From IMG/VR virus record IMGVR_UViG_3300048880_000152, positions 1 to 31,061 of that record: a DNA stretch of 31,061 nucleotides. One strand, 5' to 3'. The translations under genes and the position numbers were made by a program. The stretch is from a virus (Duplodnaviria > Caudoviricetes). Shown in pieces: positions 15,783-29,218 of this stretch. The notes beneath the pieces are model-generated. The model saw only the letters and a program-made list of their open reading frames with translations, searched no databases and had not been told where the DNA came from. Every line of letters begins with the position of its first letter. Positions within the stretch are counted from its first letter, which is position 1.

Positions 15783-18700
15783 ATGGCAGCCTCTCCTTAT
15801 CCGGTAGCCAGTCCCCTGACACAGGAGGATTTTAACTACCTAGAAGCGGCCTCGCGTCCAGCGATGCCGTTAAGTCTGGAAGACATGACTTCCAGCTATG
15901 AACTTTTCAAGACCCTCAAGAAAGAAGGGGCGTTCAAGGGGAACGTCGCCAAGGCGGAAGGCGTTATCGATACCGGCGTTGAGGCCGGGAAGATGATATG
16001 GGAGGGCGGTTCGCATTTACTCTCCGACATATTCTCATGGGACGAGGACGAGGGGGGCAACGTAACTGCCCTCGGGATGCTGCCGTACTGGGGCAGGGAT
16101 GCGTTTCGGCGTGTGACGGGCGGCAGGACCAACCAACAGATCGCAGAAGCGGAAGCCACTGCCCAGCAGACCGGCGGTAACGTCCTACTGAACTGGAAAC
16201 ATTTAAAGGCCGGTGGAGGCAGAGTGATCGACAGGATGATGGAGGACGACGACTCCGAGGAAGACCTCCAGTCGTCTTACAAGTACTGGAAGCGTGTAGC
16301 TGAACTGGAAAAGCAACGAGCAGGCGTGGCCGTAGAATACGCCAAGGACGACGATTGGAAGACCGCAGGCATGCAGCCCGAGATCGTCGAGCTTATGGCA
16401 TCGGGAAAAGCTACGCCGGACCAGAAGGCGGCAATGGGTGGATCACTCATCATGGACCCGATAAACTGGATTCCATTCGGAGTAGCGACGAAGGCTCTCG
16501 GGGTAGGCGGCAGAGGTACTCTGACGGGGGCCAACCGGGCGTTGATTCAAGACACTTTGAAAATGATTTCCCAGCAACGCGCACTGGAGCAAGTAGTGAA
16601 AGCGGCTCCGGGGTCGGTCCAAGGCTGGCGCGTTGGGGGCAGGGCAGGACTTCAGGCAGGCCGCGAGGCGGTTCGGGCCGGCGAGGCTATTCAAGTCCTC
16701 GAACGGAAGATAGCCGAGAATGCGGTAAAGTTGGCTCCAATCGCCAAGAAGCGGGACATTGGCCTGCGAGCATTTGCCGAAGGGCTTGAGGAGGGAAGCC
16801 CAGCAAGACTAATGATTGAGAACGCCTTGGAGGGCGTTCCGATCAAGAGCAGCGCTCCCCTTGCCGCCACGGTGGTCGGAGGCGCGACTGTAGCCGCAGG
16901 AAAAACCGCCGAGAACATAGGGTCCGTCCTCGACTTCCTTTCTACCATTGCCCCCGAAACAGCTATCACTCTTTTGGGGAAATTTGGAATGTCGGAAATC
17001 GACGCCGTCAGCCTGATGAGCGGCAGCGCATCGAAGTGGGGAATGAGGGGAGCGGCAGGAGCAGGCGCATTCGCCCTTTTAGGAGCCGACGAAGATGACG
17101 TTTTGCTGGCTATGGCAACGGCCCTCGGCCCTGCGTTTCTTTCCCGCTATGGCCGCGACATGGCCTTGGCGGGGAGGGAGATGATGAAAGCGGAGCAGTA
17201 CTTGCCCTACTTCAGAAGACTTCGCTCGACCAATCCCGAGCGCCTCATAGACCAAGCCATAGACAGAACTACGTTAGGCTCGACGTACGGATCGAGCTTT
17301 CGCCGGTCTTATGGGGCGGCGGAGGGCGGACTCAAGAGAAGGGCCTTTGGACTTACCGACGAAACGGGAGCAATCGGCAGGCTAGGCCCCGGCTCGGCAG
17401 CATTGGCTCGATTTCTGGATGACAGCAAGCTCGGCCGGGTAGCCGAAACAGGAGGACGCATCGGAGCAGCTACAATCCCCGCCGCCGGAATAGGCGCAGG
17501 ATTCGGGTACGTCGCCGGAGGAGGGGAAGACATAGACCCGACCCTCCAAGGGCTTGGCATGGGGTTGACGCTTGGCATGGGGGGAGCCGCCTTCGGGCAT
17601 TTCCGCAGGTTCGACAACCCCGCTCAACTCGTTAAAGCTCGCTATGGCGATTGGCTCCACTTCAAGGACAACTACCTTCCGGCAGGGCAAAAAGAGGCGT
17701 ATTTCAAGATGCCGCGAGAAAAGCAACTCGCGATGGCCTCGATGCAGTTGCGCCACCCCGACCTCGTCATGCATTTCGAGAACAAGGGGAAGGACGGTTC
17801 GCCGGGACATCACTACGTCGAGGACCAGACCAGCCATATCGCAATAAACGTAGACTCTCCCCGCGCACTGGAGTTCGTCCTTTCCCATGAAATCATCCAC
17901 GACATCGACAAACGAGGCGGGATGCAGAAATTCGACGACATTCTCCTCGGCAATCCCTTGACAGAGCAGCCCGGAGTTTATACGGAACGAGTCACGCCCG
18001 AGACTAAGTCAAAGTACCCCGACTTGGAAATAGGCGAACCGATCCTAATCGGGGAGGCGGGAAGCCCGACCAACCCTCGCCGCTACAAGACCAACTCCGA
18101 CTTCGAGGCCCTTCGCAAGGACTACGGCGAACAGATAGGCGCTACCGAGGGTGCGGAGGGCGTAGTGATGACCGACCATAGGACGGTCCGGGAAATCGTA
18201 GGCGAGCATGGCCCCGACTTCCTCCTGAAGGACAAACGCCGCTACCGCGACCTGCACGAAGGACCGCTGGGAGCGATGATGCGTACACTCATGGAAACGG
18301 AGTTAGTCCAAAATCGTCCCCTACTCAAGAATTTGATCGGCATTCTCGGTGGAGGCTTTCGGCCCGAAGGCCCGCTAATGGCCGACAATGCCATCTTCCG
18401 TAAACTTCGCAGGACGCCTGCCGTGACTGAATTGATACGCAAGTACAACCGGAAGCTCGAAGGCTTGGACCCGGAGACAAGAGCCAAGAAATTCCCACTT
18501 CCCGAAAGCGAAAACACTTTTGAGGTCAAGGGGGCGGACTTCGCCAAGCACCCCGGCCTGCAAGACCTTCTCCGCGCCGGCACGTTTTTCCGAGTCAACC
18601 AAGACGGCACTCTTTCGACCAGCCACGCAATGACTCCTCGCGAAAGGAACAAGTACGACAAAAGCTTTTCGGAAGCCTTGAAAGCCGCCATTGAAGCTGC

Positions 18701-21700
18701 GGACGCCAAGGGCGAGCTATCGGCAGGCCACGTTAGACCTTCCGCTAAAGTAGATGGAAAGTTCGAGGGAACGTTTCTTTCGGACAAAGTGATCGACGTC
18801 GTCGAGCAAGCGGGGGGGTGGAACAAGGAACAGATTGGTCTTCTTAGAGACTTAAACGAGAAACTGAAGTCCGGCGAAGGGAATGAGTTTTTAATCTCTT
18901 ACTTCAAGGCGACGACCAAAGGCGGTCGGAAATACGTTAACGCCAAAGTCGAACATTTGACCGAAGTCCCCTACGGGATTGAAATCACGAAGGCGGGCAA
19001 CATCAACTTTCGCACCGTTTCCATCGACCAACTCGTCAAGAACGTCGAGAAACTGGTCAGGACGCAGAAGGCCGAGGTAAGTCGCCTGTACGGGTCTGAC
19101 GAGGCCCTCGCAAAGGATTTAATCCTAGACGACTTGGATACTTACCACCGCAACCACGCCGCAGGACGACCCGGAGCGACTGGACTTCATGCCGACCCTC
19201 AAACTGCCGAGGCAAGGCGCAACCTGCTGAACTCGGCGTTCGGCGAAGGCCGCAAAGGCCAACTTGACGCCAACCCTTGGCTTGCCGGTCTTACGGGAAG
19301 TAAGGCCACTAGACCCGTCTACCGTTCTCGCCGTATCGAACGCATCGGCAAAGTGGTACAACTTTCGGGCAAGAGGCCAATCTCTTACGAGAAGATTGCC
19401 GAGAACTTCATGCCCCGCCGCCGCAGTCCCGACGACACGATTCCGCTGCCATTCCCCGAACTGCCCGGCGACATACCCGGCGAAGGATTCGCCCGCATGG
19501 TCGACGTCGGGAAGACCAAGTCGGAGCTGGCCGAGGCCGCCAGGTTGGCGGACGAGCAGAAGGGCTGGCGCGCAGGCAACGTCAGGACGCCGGATGCGTA
19601 TGGGCGGGACAAGCTGTTTATGCCGGCCGCCGAGGCAGGCGCTCCGAAGGGGAAAGAGAAATGGTCCGCCGAACAATGGCGGAAGAAAGGAACGGATTCG
19701 CCGTTCTTCCGGGCGTGGTTCGGAAAGTCGAAAACGCTCGAATATCAAGGGACTGGCGGCAAAACCCCGCTCCCGTGGATTCATCATGGATCACTCGGGC
19801 AGGGCGGCCCGGAAAGCATGATCCCGGGGACTCCCAGCCGAGGAGGCGGCTTCATAAGGGCCATATGGCTTTCACAACCAAATCCTCGGGGAGATGCTGG
19901 GAAAGTCCCAACCGGCCACGCCGACCGCGGACCTATGACCCTCCTTTATGCTCGGGCTAATAAAATCTGGGACTGGAGAAATGATGCTCACTTGAACGCG
20001 CTCGCCAAACGCCTTTCGGCGGAGGCCGAAAAAAACAATTTCAAATGGGACGCCGAGAATTGGAAAACCATAGTCCGCGATGAGAGTGGAAGCGCCGCCC
20101 ATCTAAACGATTTTGTTTCGGACATAAAAGCTCTCGGCTTCGATGCCGCCCAAATCGGCGACCGGGGCGAACTAGTGATTTTCGACGCCGCAAAAAACGT
20201 GAAGTCGGCGGACAACCGAGGGACGTTTTCCCCGTCCGAAGGGAACATTCTTTTTATGCCGGCCGAAAGCAAGGGCCAGCAGAAGAAAATTCTACTGCGG
20301 ACGAAGCAAGAAATGAGCGATGCGGTGGACAGTCTCGCCGCCCAGCGGGGCATAAGCCGGAACGATGCTCTGAACGAACTCCTGAACTCGGCCCTGCTCG
20401 ACCCTCAGAGGCCAGTGGGCAAGCGGTCTGAAAGTGATATCACATTGGCTTTGACGCCGGAAGAGAATGCCCTGCTCGAAAAAACGGGAATTGGCCCGGA
20501 AGAGAGCGCCGAATACAAGGCGGCAATCGCAAAAAGACGGGCGATTTCAGAACGCGAAATAGGCGTTAAAAATAGACTTTATATGCCGGCCGACCGCGCA
20601 CTCGGACTTCCGGACAATATTCGGGACGATGTATTGCCCGGAATAAAGCAGGACAAATTTAGCCGGGCGCAGCTTGAAGCGGCCCTATTGAAATCGGCAG
20701 GCTCGAAAGCCTACGCCGAGGAGATCGGCCTAATGGACTGGCTGAAGGACCGCAAGAGCGTAACGAAGGGCGAGGTGGACGCCTTCGTCGCCGAGAACGC
20801 TCCTAGGCTGCTGGAGTACGTCCGCGATGATAGGAGGGACATGCCGTCTCCGAAATTCTCCGACTCCCAAGAACCGGGCGGGACGAATTACCGTGAAATA
20901 GTTGTTAAGCTGCCGGTCGAGGCTTTAAATAAACCCGAATTGCGGAAAGTAGCAAAACTCGAACAGGAGGCCGAGCTGCATCGCGTTGCCCGGAAGGAAG
21001 CGGAGGCCGAGGGAGATAGAATTCTTAGCAATGAAATAGCCCACGAACAAAGTGCGATAAATAATAGAATCGAAAACCTTAAAACTGGAAAAACATTCAA
21101 AGATGATATTCACTTCGGAGACAACGTCCTGCTCTGGCTTCGCCTGAACGACCGCATCGATGCGGGCGGCAAGAAGGTACTCTTCATCGAGGAACTGCAA
21201 TCCAATTGGCATCAGAAGGGCCGCAAAGAGGGGTATGCGAAGCGGGGGGAGCTTGGGGAAATCCCAGACGCCCCCTTCAAGAAGAACTGGCCGGCCCTCG
21301 GCCTCAAGCGGACAATCCGCGAAGCCCTCGAAAACGGCTATGACCGAATCGCATGGTTGGACGGCGAGGGGCAGGCGGCGAGGTATGACTTGAGTAGACA
21401 GGTGGAGGCGATTGCAGTCCCAGTAGTTGGGTCGAGTAGCAGATCGGTGCGGATTGATTCGAAGGACGGCAATTCATTCAAATTGAATGTCGATGCTAAT
21501 GGAAAGGTAAAAGGACTTTATCCCGCCGAACAGTTTACCGGGAAGCAACTCGACGAAGTAATTGGCAAAGAGTTAGCTAAAAAAGTCATGGCCTTTGAAT
21601 CTCCCAATAGTTTAACTGGACTCGACCTCAAGGTAGGCGGCGAGGGCATGAAGTCCTTCTATGACCGCGAACTCGTCTCCATCGCCAACAAGATTTCAAA

Positions 21701-23372
21701 GAAGATAGGCGGCGGGAAGGTCAGGCGGGAGACAATCCCGAGCGCTCCACCACTAAGAACTCTTCCCATCTCCCACGTCCTCGACCTCCCGAAGAATCCG
21801 CAGGCCGTTGAGAACCTCCGACTCTACATGCCAGCCCAGAAAGCCCCGTCCGACTCCCGAGTCCCGACCATCCTGCGGGACTTACCGGCGAAGGGCAGGG
21901 GAGCGGGGAAGGCTTTTATGCCGGCCGCAAAGCCGGAGAGCGTGTCGCCGAATACGGTCCAATCATGGGACGTCGATCCGAGCTTTCCGGGGAAGTACAC
22001 AAGAGGGCAGGCCAAGAGCAACGACGACGTCGGCAAACTCTTTCAGGAGAAATACGTCGAGAAATACGGCGAGCCTATCGACCCTTACGACTATACTCCG
22101 GAAACGACCGGCTGGCTGGGCGGCATGTTGTACGACGAGGCGAAAGTCGCATTGGCCAGAGCCGGCAATGCGGTGGACTGGTACACGAAGGCAGTCGCCG
22201 AGGCCATGACGATAGCCGAGGAAATCTTTCCCGAAATAAAGACTTCAGCCGCCGCCAAGGACAACTTTCTAGGGGCATTGGCAATTACCAGCCAGAACAT
22301 GCGAGTTCTGGACAACGCCAGAGCCGCAGTCCACCAGTACGACTACAAGCAGAAGCACGGCGTGTTCGACTATAAGAAGAAGCACGGCGGCAAGGCGAAG
22401 ATGATTACCGAGAATCTTCGGATGTTCGATGAGATGGAATCGAGGATGACAGACTTTTCCGACTTTTTGGACACTGACTTTACCGTCAAGGAATTGACCG
22501 AGTTCGGCCAGAAATTCTTCGGCAAAGAAAAATTTACCATCGAGGGACGAATCAACGATCAAGTAAAAGGCTCTGCGGTCTTCGGGCCGAAGATCGGGCA
22601 AGGATTTTTCCAGAATTTAAAAGGCAACTACCTTCCCGTTACTATCGACCTCTGGCTGCGGCGTACCTTTGGACGTCTCACGGGCCGATCCGTATCGATT
22701 AAACTGAAACGCGACGACATCGGCAGACTCATTTATTCCCATCGCAAGAACAAAGGGAAGCGGAAGGCGAAGGATTTTGAACTTCCGGAGTTTTTGGAGA
22801 AGCTCCAAATAACGGGCGGATTCACAAAAGACGGCAGAATGAATTTTAAGATTTCCGAAAGCGCGTTCGAGCGGCTTTTCGGGGAGCATGGGCAGGGCAT
22901 GGCCAACGCCGAGATAGTATTCGACCTGACCAAACGGCTGGCGAAGGACTGGAGCCGGGAATATAGCACTACCGACCGAGCAGTCGCCAAATTGAAGGCG
23001 GAACTGGCCAGCCGGAAGAAAGCCGGCCTGCCGGTCAAGCAGACGACTGCGAGGCTGGAAAAGGCGGAGGCGGCTAAAGCGAAGCTGCTGGAAGAAAAAC
23101 CCCTCTGGGCATTTGCTTCGTCGTCGATCAGCGGAAAGCTAAAGCCCATCGACATCCCGACTGCGCAGGAGCGGACGGTCATCGTGGACGCCTTCAACGT
23201 CGCCCTGAAGAAACTAAAGGCCGAGGGGTATGACTTGACTCCGGCGGACCTTCAGGCTACTTTATGGTATCCGGAAAAGGATATATGGGCCTTCCTCAAG
23301 GGCGACAAAGCCGAATCCCTAAACCTGTCATACGATAAAGCGATGGAGATTATTCGCGATGAAAGACGTTAA
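15783..23372 (+). CDS. Giant internal virion/polyvalent protein (2529 aa): hydrophobic N-terminal part, HExxH metallopeptidase motif, ART-like, ribbon-helix-helix-like and further modules
   Basis: Uninterrupted 7.6-kb ORF and last large gene of the virion operon. HEIIH at 17886-17900; F.AWFG.SK...HHG...VKSA.NRGTF module; six [F/Y]MP motifs. Confidence 0.8.
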   Translation: MAASPYPVASPLTQEDFNYLEAASRPAMPLSLEDMTSSYELFKTLKKEGAFKGNVAKAEGVIDTGVEAGKMIWEGGSHLLSDIFSWDEDEGGNVTALGMLPYWGRDAFRRVTGGRTNQQIAEAEATAQQTGGNVLLNWKHLKAGGGRVIDRMMEDDDSEEDLQSSYKYWKRVAELEKQRAGVAVEYAKDDDWKTAGMQPEIVELMASGKATPDQKAAMGGSLIMDPINWIPFGVATKALGVGGRGTLTGANRALIQDTLKMISQQRALEQVVKAAPGSVQGWRVGGRAGLQAGREAVRAGEAIQVLERKIAENAVKLAPIAKKRDIGLRAFAEGLEEGSPARLMIENALEGVPIKSSAPLAATVVGGATVAAGKTAENIGSVLDFLSTIAPETAITLLGKFGMSEIDAVSLMSGSASKWGMRGAAGAGAFALLGADEDDVLLAMATALGPAFLSRYGRDMALAGREMMKAEQYLPYFRRLRSTNPERLIDQAIDRTTLGSTYGSSFRRSYGAAEGGLKRRAFGLTDETGAIGRLGPGSAALARFLDDSKLGRVAETGGRIGAATIPAAGIGAGFGYVAGGGEDIDPTLQGLGMGLTLGMGGAAFGHFRRFDNPAQLVKARYGDWLHFKDNYLPAGQKEAYFKMPREKQLAMASMQLRHPDLVMHFENKGKDGSPGHHYVEDQTSHIAINVDSPRALEFVLSHEIIHDIDKRGGMQKFDDILLGNPLTEQPGVYTERVTPETKSKYPDLEIGEPILIGEAGSPTNPRRYKTNSDFEALRKDYGEQIGATEGAEGVVMTDHRTVREIVGEHGPDFLLKDKRRYRDLHEGPLGAMMRTLMETELVQNRPLLKNLIGILGGGFRPEGPLMADNAIFRKLRRTPAVTELIRKYNRKLEGLDPETRAKKFPLPESENTFEVKGADFAKHPGLQDLLRAGTFFRVNQDGTLSTSHAMTPRERNKYDKSFSEALKAAIEAADAKGELSAGHVRPSAKVDGKFEGTFLSDKVIDVVEQAGGWNKEQIGLLRDLNEKLKSGEGNEFLISYFKATTKGGRKYVNAKVEHLTEVPYGIEITKAGNINFRTVSIDQLVKNVEKLVRTQKAEVSRLYGSDEALAKDLILDDLDTYHRNHAAGRPGATGLHADPQTAEARRNLLNSAFGEGRKGQLDANPWLAGLTGSKATRPVYRSRRIERIGKVVQLSGKRPISYEKIAENFMPRRRSPDDTIPLPFPELPGDIPGEGFARMVDVGKTKSELAEAARLADEQKGWRAGNVRTPDAYGRDKLFMPAAEAGAPKGKEKWSAEQWRKKGTDSPFFRAWFGKSKTLEYQGTGGKTPLPWIHHGSLGQGGPESMIPGTPSRGGGFIRAIWLSQPNPRGDAGKVPTGHADRGPMTLLYARANKIWDWRNDAHLNALAKRLSAEAEKNNFKWDAENWKTIVRDESGSAAHLNDFVSDIKALGFDAAQIGDRGELVIFDAAKNVKSADNRGTFSPSEGNILFMPAESKGQQKKILLRTKQEMSDAVDSLAAQRGISRNDALNELLNSALLDPQRPVGKRSESDITLALTPEENALLEKTGIGPEESAEYKAAIAKRRAISEREIGVKNRLYMPADRALGLPDNIRDDVLPGIKQDKFSRAQLEAALLKSAGSKAYAEEIGLMDWLKDRKSVTKGEVDAFVAENAPRLLEYVRDDRRDMPSPKFSDSQEPGGTNYREIVVKLPVEALNKPELRKVAKLEQEAELHRVARKEAEAEGDRILSNEIAHEQSAINNRIENLKTGKTFKDDIHFGDNVLLWLRLNDRIDAGGKKVLFIEELQSNWHQKGRKEGYAKRGELGEIPDAPFKKNWPALGLKRTIREALENGYDRIAWLDGEGQAARYDLSRQVEAIAVPVVGSSSRSVRIDSKDGNSFKLNVDANGKVKGLYPAEQFTGKQLDEVIGKELAKKVMAFESPNSLTGLDLKVGGEGMKSFYDRELVSIANKISKKIGGGKVRRETIPSAPPLRTLPISHVLDLPKNPQAVENLRLYMPAQKAPSDSRVPTILRDLPAKGRGAGKAFMPAAKPESVSPNTVQSWDVDPSFPGKYTRGQAKSNDDVGKLFQEKYVEKYGEPIDPYDYTPETTGWLGGMLYDEAKVALARAGNAVDWYTKAVAEAMTIAEEIFPEIKTSAAAKDNFLGALAITSQNMRVLDNARAAVHQYDYKQKHGVFDYKKKHGGKAKMITENLRMFDEMESRMTDFSDFLDTDFTVKELTEFGQKFFGKEKFTIEGRINDQVKGSAVFGPKIGQGFFQNLKGNYLPVTIDLWLRRTFGRLTGRSVSIKLKRDDIGRLIYSHRKNKGKRKAKDFELPEFLEKLQITGGFTKDGRMNFKISESAFERLFGEHGQGMANAEIVFDLTKRLAKDWSREYSTTDRAVAKLKAELASRKKAGLPVKQTTARLEKAEAAKAKLLEEKPLWAFASSSISGKLKPIDIPTAQERTVIVDAFNVALKKLKAEGYDLTPADLQATLWYPEKDIWAFLKGDKAESLNLSYDKAMEIIRDERR

Positions 23373-23529
23373 GAAAAAACCCGCCATCTACAATTTCAGT
23401 CATGAAGACGGCATCGCGCATCAGATGTCGGAGAAGCAGCGGACCGGTTTTATTGATGCTCTGGACAAACTCCATCAGAAAAAGATTCGAGCTAAAAAAG
23501 CGCGGGGAAGAAAAGACTCGACTGCCTAG
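23359..23529 (+). CDS. Small basic protein (56 aa, MKDVKKKPAIYNFSHEDGIAHQMSEKQRTGFIDALDKLHQKKIRAKKARGRKDSTA)
   Basis: Translated by hand. GGAG 10 nt before the ATG, overlaps the end of the giant gene, and its TAG lies within the RNA element below. Confidence 0.55.
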   Translation: MKDVKKKPAIYNFSHEDGIAHQMSEKQRTGFIDALDKLHQKKIRAKKARGRKDSTA

Positions 23530-23566
23530 CGGCAGGACGCCGGTGCGACTCCGGCCTTCTCCACCA
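23504..23566 (+). ncRNA. Minimal tmRNA-like RNA: tRNA-like domain only, no mRNA-like domain
   Basis: Acceptor GGGGAAG/CTTCTCC with G3-U70, discriminator A and encoded CCA. Stemless D-loop AAAAGACTCGA, helix CTGCC/GGCAG closed by TAGC, GAC linker, T-arm GCCGG-TGCGACT-CCGGC. Confidence 0.8.
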
Positions 23567-23758
23567 TTGCCCGATCCAGCCGAGCGAATTACCTCGGCTA
23601 AACAAGCCCATAATTAGGCTCTAAATTCGGCGCGGAGTTATGCCCGGAAAGCTATTTCGATAGCGTCAGTTCTGTCCTGTAATGGCAAATAACTGTAGTT
23701 TAGGCTTGTGAAGGGGCAACTTTTGGCTAGTCTTTGTCGCAAGCGGTATTTAAGCAGT

Positions 23759-24142
23759 ATGACTACGAAGAAAAGAGAAAACGCCAACGACTGGAAAGTG
23801 ATCATTTCATTCGAGGGGGAAACGAGAACGGCCTTCGCGAAGCATGAGTTACTGCTCAGAGTGAAATTTGCGGAGGCGGTCAAGCGTAACTGGAAGGAAT
23901 CGGCACTGATGCGATTCGATGAGGCCGAGCGACTCGATGCCTCCACTTGGTACGGGAAGACGTATACCTCCAGCGGAAAGCTACTAGAATATAAAGTGAT
24001 CTGGCGAGTCGATCTAATCAAGCAAGCAGCCGCTCGTCTAGGGGCTTTGGGAGGAGCCGCAGGCCGAGGAAAGGCAAAAAGGCGAGGGAACTCCGAATAT
24101 TACAAAAGGTTGAGAGCAAAGCAAAACAAGAGGAAAAGCTAA
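23759..24142 (+). CDS. Hypothetical basic protein (127 aa)
   Basis: Probable start ATG 23759. C-terminal AAARLGALGGAAGRGKAKRR...YYKRLR basic segment. Confidence 0.65.
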   Translation: MTTKKRENANDWKVIISFEGETRTAFAKHELLLRVKFAEAVKRNWKESALMRFDEAERLDASTWYGKTYTSSGKLLEYKVIWRVDLIKQAAARLGALGGAAGRGKAKRRGNSEYYKRLRAKQNKRKS

Positions 24143-24384
24143 TGAAGCATGATAAGATAATTAGCGAGAGTTAGCCTCAGAATAAGTTTAACTTTTAAAA
24201 TAAGAGGGAAGAGCATTAAATCTTGAACGGAAGTCAAATGTGTCCAGTCTCAGCTATCGTAAGCCACATCCACCTAATTGAGGACAGGCTGGACATTAGG
24301 TTCGCACTATATGCATTATTTGAAGAAAATCTAAATTTTGTGTGAATAACTTTCGTTCAGTCTGTCTTCGGAAAAACCATCCGA
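24143..24384. promoter_or_regulatory. AT-rich intergenic region before the replication module (candidate promoter or origin)
   Basis: Long gap without a credible gene, visibly AT-rich. Contains TGaTAAGAT (24150-24158) and an imperfect inverted repeat 24241-24250/24286-24295. Confidence 0.4.
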
Positions 24385-24576
24385 ATGACAGAAGACACAA
24401 CCCAGACCCAGAAGCCCCTATTAATAACACGGCAGGAGACGATGACTCTCCTCCAGTGCGGACCACGTACCCTATCACGTTGGGCCGCCAAATTCAAATT
24501 TGCGAAGCTCGGGCGGAATTTCGTCCGGGCTGACGTCGAAAAGAAGATTGCCGCCCTCGCCGAGGGGGCGGCGTGA
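24385..24576 (+). CDS. Helix-turn-helix DNA-binding protein (excisionase/MerR-like)
   Basis: LITRQETMTLLQCGPRTLSRW...RNFVRADVE pattern. Confidence 0.7.
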   Translation: MTEDTTQTQKPLLITRQETMTLLQCGPRTLSRWAAKFKFAKLGRNFVRADVEKKIAALAEGAA

Positions 24577-25028
24577 GGATAACGCTCGCTTCCGATCCCG
24601 GCAAGTCCGGAGGCTACGCCGTGGCATTCGGCTCGCTCGACAAGGTAGAGCTTTACCCGTGGAGCGAGGAGGACGAGTTCCTCGCCTACCTAGACGAGCT
24701 TTTCAACTACGAGGATTCAAAAGGAATCGAGGCAGTCGTCGAGCTAGTCCCGCCCTTCGTCGGCAAGGCGATTCCCGGCTCCGCCGCCTTCAAGCTCGGA
24801 TATAATTATGGATTCATCTGCGGCTCGATTCGAGCCAATCGGATTCCTCTTATACTCTGCCGCCCGCAGGAGTGGCAAAAAGGACTGCCGGGCTTGCAGG
24901 GCATTACAGGCAATCCTCGAAAGAAAAAGCTTCGCGATCATGCGGTCAGACTCTTTCCGAGCCTCAAAGGCGTAACGCTGAAGACATGCGATGCCCTGCT
25001 CATCCTCAACCATCATCTTTCACACTAA
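24573..25028 (+). CDS. RuvC-like Holliday junction resolvase
   Basis: DPGKSGG.A, VE.V, SAAFKLGYNYG, RPQEWQK and DALLI motifs. Confidence 0.85.
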   Translation: MRITLASDPGKSGGYAVAFGSLDKVELYPWSEEDEFLAYLDELFNYEDSKGIEAVVELVPPFVGKAIPGSAAFKLGYNYGFICGSIRANRIPLILCRPQEWQKGLPGLQGITGNPRKKKLRDHAVRLFPSLKGVTLKTCDALLILNHHLSH

Positions 25029-27461: not shown

Positions 27462-29218
27462 TAGCCGCCGATACGGAAACTTTCTGGTCGAGGCAGTATT
27501 CGATTGCTCGGCTCGGGCTGGATCGGTACGTCATGCATCCGCAGTTCAAGGTAACGCTGGTCAGCCTGCACTCCCCCGACTTTGAATGGGTAGGAACTCC
27601 CGACCAGTTGCCGGTCGAGCGGTTGGCCGGCCAGACGGTATTGGCTCACAACGCCGACTTCGATGCCACGGTTTGCCGGATGGCCATCTCGAAAGGGCAG
27701 ATGCCGGACTTTCAAGCGGCCCGCTGGATTTGCACGGCGGACATGTCCGCTTGGCATCAGTATCCCCGAAGTCTGAAAGGAGCATACAAACATTTGTTCG
27801 GCGAAGACCTTTCTAAAGACGCGCGAGACGAAATGAAGGGGCTTACCCCGGAAGTAATAGCGGCCAACCCGGCCTTCAGAGAGTACGCCCTGTCGGACGC
27901 CCGAGCCTGCTATCGCATTTATGAAGCACTCGCCCCAAGTTTTCCGGAGTTCGAGTTTATCCTTTCAGAGCTAACTCGATTAATAGCCGCGCGAGGCTTG
28001 CCGGTGGATTCGCGACTCTGTCAGACCTTCATCGACGATCTGGACAAAATTAAGGATGGCTACGAGGCGGCCATTATTTGGCGAGCCGGCCACAACCCGG
28101 CTCCGATAACTTCGCCTCTGGCCCTCGGCGATGCCTGCCGACTCGCCGGCATCGAGCCGCCTACCTCGACTAACGAGGACGATCCGGCCTGCATGAAGTG
28201 GAAGTCGGCCCATCCCGAGCAGGCCAAGTGGCTCGATGCAATGTCCGGCTGGCGGAAGGCGAACAAGCTTCAAGAATCCCTTTATGGTTTAATCTTGAGG
28301 AAGCGTCCGGATAGCCGAGTAAGCACTCGACTGAAATTCTGCGGAGCGCAACATACTGCTCGGTTTTCCGGGTCAGGCGGACTGAACTTCCAAGCGATTC
28401 CTCGGGGCGAAATCAAGGGGATTAGCATGAAGAAATGCCTAGCCGCTCCCGCCGGCAAAGTTCTCGTCTCGGTGGACCTTTCTCAGATCGAGCCGCGAAT
28501 CCTTCACTGGCTTGCCGGCGACATGGAGTTCCTGTCGCTAGTGAGCGGAGGCATCGACCTCTACGAAGCTCATGGCAGGGCGTCAGGCTTGTATAACGAG
28601 GATGAGCCTATGAAGGACTTCGCCCCGGAGCTTAGACATCTCTGCAAGGCTCGGACGCTCGGCCTTGGCTACGGCTGCGGGGCCGGCAAATTTGCCTCCG
28701 TTGCGGAAGCCCTGACCGGCGGGAAGCTCAAGCTCTCGCCGGCAGTAGCTCGCCAGCAAGTGGCGGCATATCGCCAGCAGAATCCTCTGATCATTGCCCT
28801 CTGGGAAAAGGTCGAGGCATTCGTCCGACAACAGGCCAAGAACGAGCCGGAGTGCGCAGTCATCGAGACTCGATCCGGCAAGCCGATCCGATACTGGGAC
28901 GTCGAGTTCTCCGGCAAGAAGGACGAAATGTCCGGGTCAACCGTCAAGGGCGGTCCTCGCAAGAAATTGTATGGCCCGATGCTGGTGGAGAACCTCGTTC
29001 AGGCCACGGCTCGATGCTGTCTTGGCGAGATGCTCATAAAGGCCGAAGCCGCCGGCCTGCCGGTCTGCCTGCATGTCCATGACTCGATCACGGTCGAAGT
29101 GGCCGAGTCGGAGGGAGTGGCGGCCCTCGGCCTTCTGGTCGAGATTATGAGCAAAGCCCCAAGCTGGGCGGAGGGACTGCCTCTGGCCGCCGAGGGCGAG
29201 ATTCGGAGGCACTACTGA
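27458..29218 (+). CDS. polA: DNA polymerase family A with 3'-5' exonuclease, no 5'-3' exonuclease
   Basis: Exo motifs DTET, AHNADFD and YALSDA. Polymerase motifs TARFSG...NFQ, A (DLSQIEPR), B (R...KARTLGLGYG) and C (HVHDS). Confidence 0.95.
   Translation: MIAADTETFWSRQYSIARLGLDRYVMHPQFKVTLVSLHSPDFEWVGTPDQLPVERLAGQTVLAHNADFDATVCRMAISKGQMPDFQAARWICTADMSAWHQYPRSLKGAYKHLFGEDLSKDARDEMKGLTPEVIAANPAFREYALSDARACYRIYEALAPSFPEFEFILSELTRLIAARGLPVDSRLCQTFIDDLDKIKDGYEAAIIWRAGHNPAPITSPLALGDACRLAGIEPPTSTNEDDPACMKWKSAHPEQAKWLDAMSGWRKANKLQESLYGLILRKRPDSRVSTRLKFCGAQHTARFSGSGGLNFQAIPRGEIKGISMKKCLAAPAGKVLVSVDLSQIEPRILHWLAGDMEFLSLVSGGIDLYEAHGRASGLYNEDEPMKDFAPELRHLCKARTLGLGYGCGAGKFASVAEALTGGKLKLSPAVARQQVAAYRQQNPLIIALWEKVEAFVRQQAKNEPECAVIETRSGKPIRYWDVEFSGKKDEMSGSTVKGGPRKKLYGPMLVENLVQATARCCLGEMLIKAEAAGLPVCLHVHDSITVEVAESEGVAALGLLVEIMSKAPSWAEGLPLAAEGEIRRHY

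Follow-up and report, generated by a model that had tools for sequence, protein, structure and literature searches.

The window analysed here is a single virus record of 31 kb (31,061 nt), which encodes an SU10-type capsid protein, tail proteins, a 2529-aa protein, a resolvase, an exonuclease, a family A polymerase, and a nucleotide kinase. The phage appears to be podovirus-like. Its complete relatives measure 37-39 kb, one of them with direct terminal repeats, and the window is ~6.5 kb shorter than these. Among the nearest cultured phages, identity is no more than 34% for the capsid protein and below 29% for the polymerase in the top 15 matches. The 63-nt element that is the subject of this analysis (positions 23504-23566, + strand) lies on the coding strand, after the structural block and ahead of the replication genes.

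The last large gene of the structural block (15783-23372, + strand) encodes the 2529-aa protein, which has only a weak PHROG match to endolysin. Judging from its position, this protein is likely an internal virion protein, and the 63-nt RNA is likely co-transcribed with its gene. A promoter and terminator scan of positions 23000-24600 found no + strand promoter upstream of the element and no + strand terminator after it. Among close relatives the 2529-aa protein is a mosaic, in which blocks of 85-92% identity alternate with blocks of 29-51% identity or none. A 56-aa open reading frame (ORF; 23359-23529, + strand) starts inside the end of this giant gene, covers its stop codon, and continues into the element. 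Directly after the element, positions 23567-23700 are non-coding and contain small hairpins; this stretch is kept in four relatives that lack the element (L272, L273, L274, and L276) and is possibly a separate control region for the replication block.

Anatomy and classification of the 63-nt element

The minimum free energy (MFE) fold of the 63-mer consists of a 7-bp acceptor stem containing the pair G23506·U23560 (G3·U70), an unpaired D segment of 11 nt ending in UCGA, a 5-bp helix (P2) with a 4-nt loop, a GAC linker, a 5-bp T stem, the discriminator A73, and an encoded CCA. Specifically, the 5′ strand of the acceptor stem occupies 23504-23510, with G1 at 23504 (the predicted RNase P cut) and G3 at 23506, as supported by the sequence, the fold, and the pairs seen in the family. 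The stemless D segment follows at 23511-23521, where the RF00023 alignment and the family comparison place A23514-G23515 at the site at which most members have GG. P2 and its loop (23522-23535, loop at 23527-23530; RF00023 and fold) replace the pseudoknots and tag frame, and the ORF comparison puts the stop codon of the overlapping ORF (23527-23529) within this loop. The GAC connector and T arm (23536-23555, with G55 at 23545) are supported by RF00023, the fold, and the family comparison, and the 3′ strand of the acceptor (23556-23566, with U70 at 23560, A73 at 23563, and the CCA) by the sequence and the fold. The first-pass annotation had described the same anatomy on the + strand, and both the sequence and the MFE fold agree with it.

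The Rfam tmRNA model RF00023 matches the 63-mer from model position 1 to 374 with 42.1 bits (E = 9.7e-14), a score that does not reach the gathering score of 47, and the alignment reduces 314 model positions to 4 nt. This is the sole Rfam match with E < 3 across the window. The sequence-plus-structure match to tmRNA is strong, while the folding energy taken alone is weak evidence (z = -1.95, with 10 of 200 shuffles equally stable). Our family model R1 scores the element at 50.7 bits, with the window being part of its training set. The end-to-end RF00023 match thus agrees with the first-pass reading of an alanine tRNA-like domain of tmRNA whose message is absent. Of the programs that the first-pass annotation had suggested, Infernal with the Rfam models recovers the element through RF00023, with no listed match to permuted tmRNA, including RF02544, for the window at E up to 10, and ARAGORN does not call it (0 genes in the window). 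The two halves of the element stand in the standard order and are joined by a hairpin; they do not have the permuted two-piece arrangement.

ARAGORN and the fold reveal neither the D stem nor the anticodon arm with a 7-nt loop of a canonical tRNA-Ala. The resume codon, tag frame, and pseudoknots of a full-length tmRNA are likewise missing, and P2 holds only the 4-nt loop, with no tag reading frame. The element does show the structural features of molecules of the DS6A type, which consist of the tRNA-like domain (TLD) only: a 7-bp acceptor stem, G3·U70, A73, no D stem, the UCGA-P2-GAC junction, a T arm, and both ends of RF00023. A fold of a 247-nt precursor gave a probability of only ~0.17 for the acceptor and T stems, with the upstream coding sequence competing; this value is for naked RNA and varies with the stretch folded, and we give it little weight.

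Mycobacteriophage DS6A is listed with a “TLD only” tmRNA by Hudson, Lau and Williams 2014 (PMC4131195, Table 2), and this report and a later one (PMC11915505) supply the described phage example that the first-pass annotation did not know of. The latter (Nawrocki, Petrov and Williams 2025) describes a curated tmRNA database with 9 “standard, no CDS” genes among 97,179 (Table 3) and adds 65-bp plastid CDS-less tmRNA genes; DS6A is the only phage named as CDS-less in its text, and its Table S2 or the database may list more. The first-pass statement on message-less tmRNAs in protist mitochondria is in line with the CDS-less forms that this report gives for some mitochondria and plastids (PMC11915505). 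We located the DS6A element at positions 28478-28560 of JN698994 (L149:13479-13561); it is 83 nt long, scores 43.2 bits against RF00023, and is unannotated in the stretch of the GenBank record examined. It is a member of the same family as the window element. Both are phage genes with a tmRNA acceptor stem, a stemless D segment, a T arm, G3·U70, and A73; both lack the tag frame, the DS6A element is not the attP and the window element is unlikely to be one, and their RF00023 scores are similar (43.2 and 42.1 bits). The DS6A element, like the common 81-83-nt class, has a long P2 with a purine-rich internal loop and an inner hairpin, and its CCA is unencoded. In contrast, the window element has 63 nt, a bare 5-bp hairpin whose loop contains the stop codon of a conserved upstream ORF, an A18·G55 elbow, and an encoded CCA, and it belongs to an integrase-less podovirus-like clade. 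A blastn search of cultured phages returned no record covering 80% of the 63-nt query or of an 81-nt query.

Compared with standard tmRNA (ssrA, RF00023), the window element shares every feature of the tRNA-like domain but has none of the pseudoknots, no resume codon, no tag frame, and no stop (314 model positions); since these message parts are absent, it is unable to complete trans-translation. The CDS-less tmRNA of Mallomonadaceae plastids, at ~65 bp, is similar in size and also lacks the message (PMC11915505). However, a CDS-less organelle tmRNA is the only tmRNA of its organelle, whereas the window element would coexist with a full host tmRNA. The permuted mitochondrial tmRNA (RF02544) lacks the message too, but the window element is not permuted. 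Altogether, the 63-mer is a real RNA gene of the DS6A “TLD-only” kind, and so not a categorically new type. What is new is the conserved 56-aa gene that runs into the RNA and has its stop codon in the loop. In the open-access literature, we found no paper on a widespread phage TLD-only family or on the stop-codon overlap.

Conservation, covariation, and setting of the family

The 63-mer is identical (63/63) in three related contigs and matches at 62/63 positions in a fourth, with flank identities in the same contigs of 86-96% downstream and 46-81% upstream. Of seven close relatives that span the site, three have the element (two with the same flanks) and four do not, and the element is therefore dispensable; no copy was found in more distant related loci. 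Homology with the relatives that lack it restarts at or just after the CCA, and the DNA upstream of the element is coding and differs between carriers. At the syntenic position of one element-less relative (L290:7450-7540), we observed a tRNA-like T arm with a CCA, on which both ARAGORN and R1 are silent. In the contig of L317 (L280:8250-8500), the end of a homologue of the small ORF resembles the tail of the 56-aa ORF and keeps the D-segment motif without a T arm; this is possibly the 5′ remnant of a lost element.

To survey the family, we searched IMG/VR with a strict pattern, which found 29 viral stretches, and with a looser pattern that leaves the pairing of acceptor stem and P2 free, which found 119 loci in 13 of the 64 IMG/VR parts. 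The looser search extrapolates to ~610 viral stretches in IMG/VR, with ~5/6 of the sampled ones being real. We dropped 18 loci for imperfect acceptor or T stems (several resemble the 3′ ends of full tmRNAs) and 2 for long D segments, which left 99 of the 119 loci and 83 unique cores. The consensus structure of R1 is poor (MAFFT shifted the acceptor strand), and the use of R1 was limited to finding missed copies.

G1-C72, G2-C71, G3·U70, and A73 are present in 83 of 83 unique cores, with the acceptor stem unconstrained by the pattern, which shows selection on the identity elements for alanine. Acceptor pairs 4-7 vary with compensation, occurring in several Watson-Crick forms among these cores. 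P2 pairs 2-6 are paired in 91.6% of cases, compared with 42% when the arms are shuffled (maximum of 48.9% in 1000 shuffles), and T-stem pairs 1-3 in 98%, compared with 45%, over all 119 loci; the shuffles do not correct for relatedness, and the pair counts come from our own scripts, not from R-scape. The UCGAC and GGAC motifs were imposed by the search patterns, and their conservation is not independent evidence.

A further feature, absent from the first-pass annotation, is the A18·G55 swap at the elbow of the window element. Here we use tRNA numbering, in which we take D-segment position 18 and T-loop position 55 to form a tertiary contact. Pooling the cores of both patterns with the window and DS6A (97 cores), we found GG with U55 in 82, AG with G55 in 13, and UG with U55 in 2. 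The AG dinucleotide thus occurs in 13/13 G55 members and 0/84 U55 members, and in a rule-free check GG was found in 82/84 U55 members compared with 1/13 G55 members. The 13 AG/G55 cores represent ~8 lineages by eye, with the window included. Since this covariation of D loop and T loop concerns a tertiary contact that the search pattern did not impose, it argues for selection on the L-shaped fold. The structural selection that the first-pass annotation had suggested is therefore supported by covarying stems and elbow over 83 unique copies, and the outcome that it had named as grounds for rejection, a lack of conservation or covariation in related phages, is the opposite of what we observe.

Members are 63 to 85 nt long (mode, 81-82), the window copy being the shortest of the 83, and the CCA is encoded in 25 of the 83 unique cores. 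A long P2 with a purine-rich internal loop and inner hairpin is found in 63 of 72 long members and in DS6A, and is absent in the window. ARAGORN misses nearly all mini forms of the viral set; at 3 of the 99 loci, which are ambiguous, it calls a longer tmRNA that overlaps the element. A scan of GTDB gave 120 loci, of which one is a mini form whose genome encodes a full tmRNA as well; the other 119 lack a complete short acceptor stem by eye, being mostly ordinary tmRNA 3′ ends. Pattern searches for the host matched 0/301 sampled genomes, all of one phylum (with a looser G55-type pattern), and 1/61 genomes, and say little. One of 30 carriers also encodes a full-length tmRNA. An SmpB gene was found in none of 5 carriers, which would leave host SmpB as the partner.

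Several other RNAs were seen along the way. The record of L053 (G377) has a mini form at 46486-46567 and a full-length 392-nt tmRNA at 77588-77979. Viral contigs L353, L354, and L359 contain permuted tmRNA genes that have G55 in the T loop and share the T stem of the window element. Finally, L356 and L357 contain other tRNA-like RNAs with a G55 T loop, which ARAGORN misses or calls oddly; the one in L357 has an extended arm and no UCGAC junction.

In 59 of 77 loci across the family, the main coding strand encodes the element, and head-packaging genes are its commonest annotated neighbors (16 of 29 upstream, from 57 submitted, and 12 of 30 downstream, from 54 submitted), in counts that have no control set and in which lineages repeat. 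It is placed between genes for the terminase small and large subunits, terminase and portal, or protease and capsid. The 111 neighbor ORFs comprise 55 of 85 upstream, 54 of 78 downstream, and two small overlapping ORFs, near-duplicate and short ones having been left out by eye.

An ORF that ends inside the RNA

The 56-aa ORF, an overlap that the first-pass annotation does not mention, covers the first 26 nt of the RNA and terminates in the P2 loop; it has no PHROG or Atlas match, and its homologues form 14 clusters. A cut at G23504 would lie in codon 49, which would leave the mRNA of this ORF non-stop. Homologues occur in 12 of 32 related loci, of which 11 are element-less and have a stop codon of their own. 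Among 33 homologous sequences, which include the window's own allele and close copies, 32 terminate within the tail that the RNA encodes, either at the stop position of the 56-aa ORF or one codon later. In addition, L270 and L271 have an unrelated ORF of 72 aa whose stop codon coincides with that of the 56-aa ORF.

We compared the elements with tRNA genes for similar overlaps. An ORF of at least 80 codons crosses G1 in 17 of 102 elements compared with 7 of 139 tRNA genes (p = 0.004); limited to loci with an upstream ORF, the proportions are 17/70 and 7/59 (p = 0.11), and lineages repeat in these counts. The last base of an upstream stop codon is G1 itself in 7 of 102 elements and 0 of 139 tRNA genes. 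These seven loci are L011, L023, L033, L045, L047, L077, and L145, and their upstream genes include those for the terminase small (L011) and large (L047) subunits. In five loci (L032, L036, L057, L084, and L094), a portal-type ORF (four annotated as such) encloses the whole element in its 3′ end and stops 88-175 nt after G1. Therefore, the stop overlap is real in the window and recurrent, yet most elements lack it, and it could result from compaction.

There are precedents for such coupling. In Carsonella, processing of the smpB-ssrA RNA has been proposed to leave the smpB mRNA non-stop (PMC4131195), and for arfA of E. coli a non-stop mRNA arising through an RNA cut has been shown (PMC8012679). 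As in these two cases, a processing cut in the window is expected to strip the upstream ORF of its stop codon. What sets the window apart is that the gene concerned is a phage ORF of no assigned function and that the cut site is part of an RNA that may inhibit the same pathway.

Possible functions of the element

We give an even chance to a model in which the element, charged with alanine, competes for SmpB and thereby reduces ssrA tagging at a late stage of infection. In this model, host RNase P would probably excise the 63-mer from the late structural transcript by cutting at 23504, and the excised RNA would probably be charged with alanine. The charged RNA would then compete with host tmRNA for SmpB and stalled ribosomes, through predicted binding of SmpB and EF-Tu. 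Such competition would damp the ssrA tagging and degradation of phage proteins, presumably to the benefit of the phage, and the maturation cut would strip the upstream ORF of its stop codon as a side effect or as a secondary control.

What the data show directly is the anatomy and conservation of the element, its family, its place where the structural block ends, and its overlap with the 56-aa ORF. In favor of the competitor model are the RF00023 match at both ends, the invariant and covarying positions, the elbow covariation, and the frequent head-packaging neighbors, and this model has the only in vivo precedent, in a molecule of the DS6A type. Specifically, a DS6A-like molecule, chargeable or not, is reported to inhibit tmRNA strongly, perhaps via titration of SmpB (PMC4131195); this inhibition in E. 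coli by a TLD-only molecule is the work of Mao 2009, as cited (PMC4131195, PMC11915505). TLD fragments also bind SmpB in crystal structures (PMC3929946). However, the reported inhibition needed no charging, so that a plain sponge would leave the invariant G3·U70 unexplained (PMC4131195); this invariance favors entry into stalled ribosomes. Moreover, phage lambda-immP22 requires trans-translation (PMC2862035), and inhibition would thus not always be useful. Also counting against this model are the four close relatives that do without the element, the carrier with a full-length tmRNA of its own, and the low stem probabilities of the precursor fold. When the resume codon of E. coli tmRNA is changed to a stop codon, lambda-immP22 does not plate (EOP, 1.3e-5; PMC2862035). 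The first-pass annotation had offered two mechanisms, of which competition for SmpB has the DS6A-type precedent, and tag-free release is weakened by this plating result.

A second explanation, which we consider unlikely but worth retaining, is that the RNA handles stalled ribosomes actively and without a message. Alanyl-TLD and SmpB would take over the nascent chain, one or more untemplated alanines would be added, and another route would release the ribosome, so that rescue would occur without a tag or the chain would end in an RqcH-like alanine tail. The invariance of G3·U70 and A73 in 83/83 cores would be expected here, as it implies that charging matters, and SmpB with a TLD-only RNA yields template-free polyalanine in vitro (Shimizu and Ueda 2006, as cited in PMC3929946 and PMC2481249). 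The persistence of CDS-less tmRNAs in some mitochondria and plastids (PMC11915505) counts in the same direction. However, the element offers no frame or stop codon for termination by release factors, the resume-to-stop tmRNA fails to support lambda-immP22 (PMC2862035), and the sole in vivo report, as cited in PMC11915505, is one of inhibition.

At a slightly lower probability, the element could act chiefly in cis, as an RNase P site that divides the late transcript and deprives the upstream gene of its stop codon, thereby placing this gene under the control of trans-translation. This would account for the two unrelated ORFs that stop at the same loop codon, the shared end point of 32 of the 33 homologues, the excess of G1-crossing and stop-on-G1 ORFs over tRNA genes, and the five portal-type loci, with smpB and arfA as precedents. 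On the other hand, 85 of the 102 elements have no such long overlap, the excess shrinks once an upstream ORF is required and draws on repeated lineages, and genome compaction could account for the overlaps. The 56-aa ORF also has its own stop codon in the 11 element-less relatives, and a processing site could do without G3·U70 and keep its D stem.

Some host defences are directed at the acceptor ends of tRNAs or at tmRNA. Anticodon nucleases would be unable to cut an RNA that lacks the anticodon arm, and the element could act as a decoy or a replacement against such defences, a role that we regard as improbable. Enrichment in phages would fit this role (99/119 viral compared with 1/120 genome loci, the genome scan being swamped by ordinary tmRNA ends), and co-expression with head genes would be expected, but the tmRNA-specific junction and the P2 length classes are left unexplained, and only 14 of 70 long loci have a tRNA nearby.

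The reading as an attP site, or as a decaying remnant of a captured host ssrA, is largely refuted and very unlikely: ssrA is a common integration target (PMC11915505), a downstream 63-aa ORF weakly matches a PHROG labelled excisionase/regulator (4e-6), presence of the element is patchy with homology resuming around the CCA, and the incomplete window could be missing a gene, but the element has a complete 5′ half of its own and a core better conserved than its flanks, DS6A integrates at tRNA-Lys and not at its element (PMC10865867), five of five relatives that are 99-100% complete (none of which carries the element) have no tyrosine integrase or serine recombinase, and integrases number none among the 38 ORFs of the incomplete window, 0 among the 111 neighbor ORFs, 3 in 30 carriers picked for length (all tyrosine), and 1 in 12 near-complete carriers. 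This scarcity of integrases is in keeping with the first-pass preference for a tmRNA domain over an attP.

A bolder reading, at a probability that we put slightly below that of the cis role, is a trans-translation switch built by the phage. Maturation of the 63-mer would make the overlapping mRNA non-stop, and its protein would be ssrA-tagged and destroyed until the charged mini-tmRNA takes over SmpB and tagging gives way to untemplated alanine addition. If true, 63 bases would combine an inhibitor, a sensor, and a trigger, and terminase and portal genes of other phages would be gated in the same way, where the stop codon falls on G1 or the RNA lies inside the coding end. More broadly, if these elements inhibit or rewire trans-translation, they would form a widespread, unannotated class of phage RNA that targets host translation quality control, and would be naturally occurring inhibitors of a pathway that is being pursued as a target for antibiotics. 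The minimal natural scaffold is represented by the 63-nt copy, and its overlapping stop codon provides a direct handle on any coupling of RNA maturation and non-stop decay.
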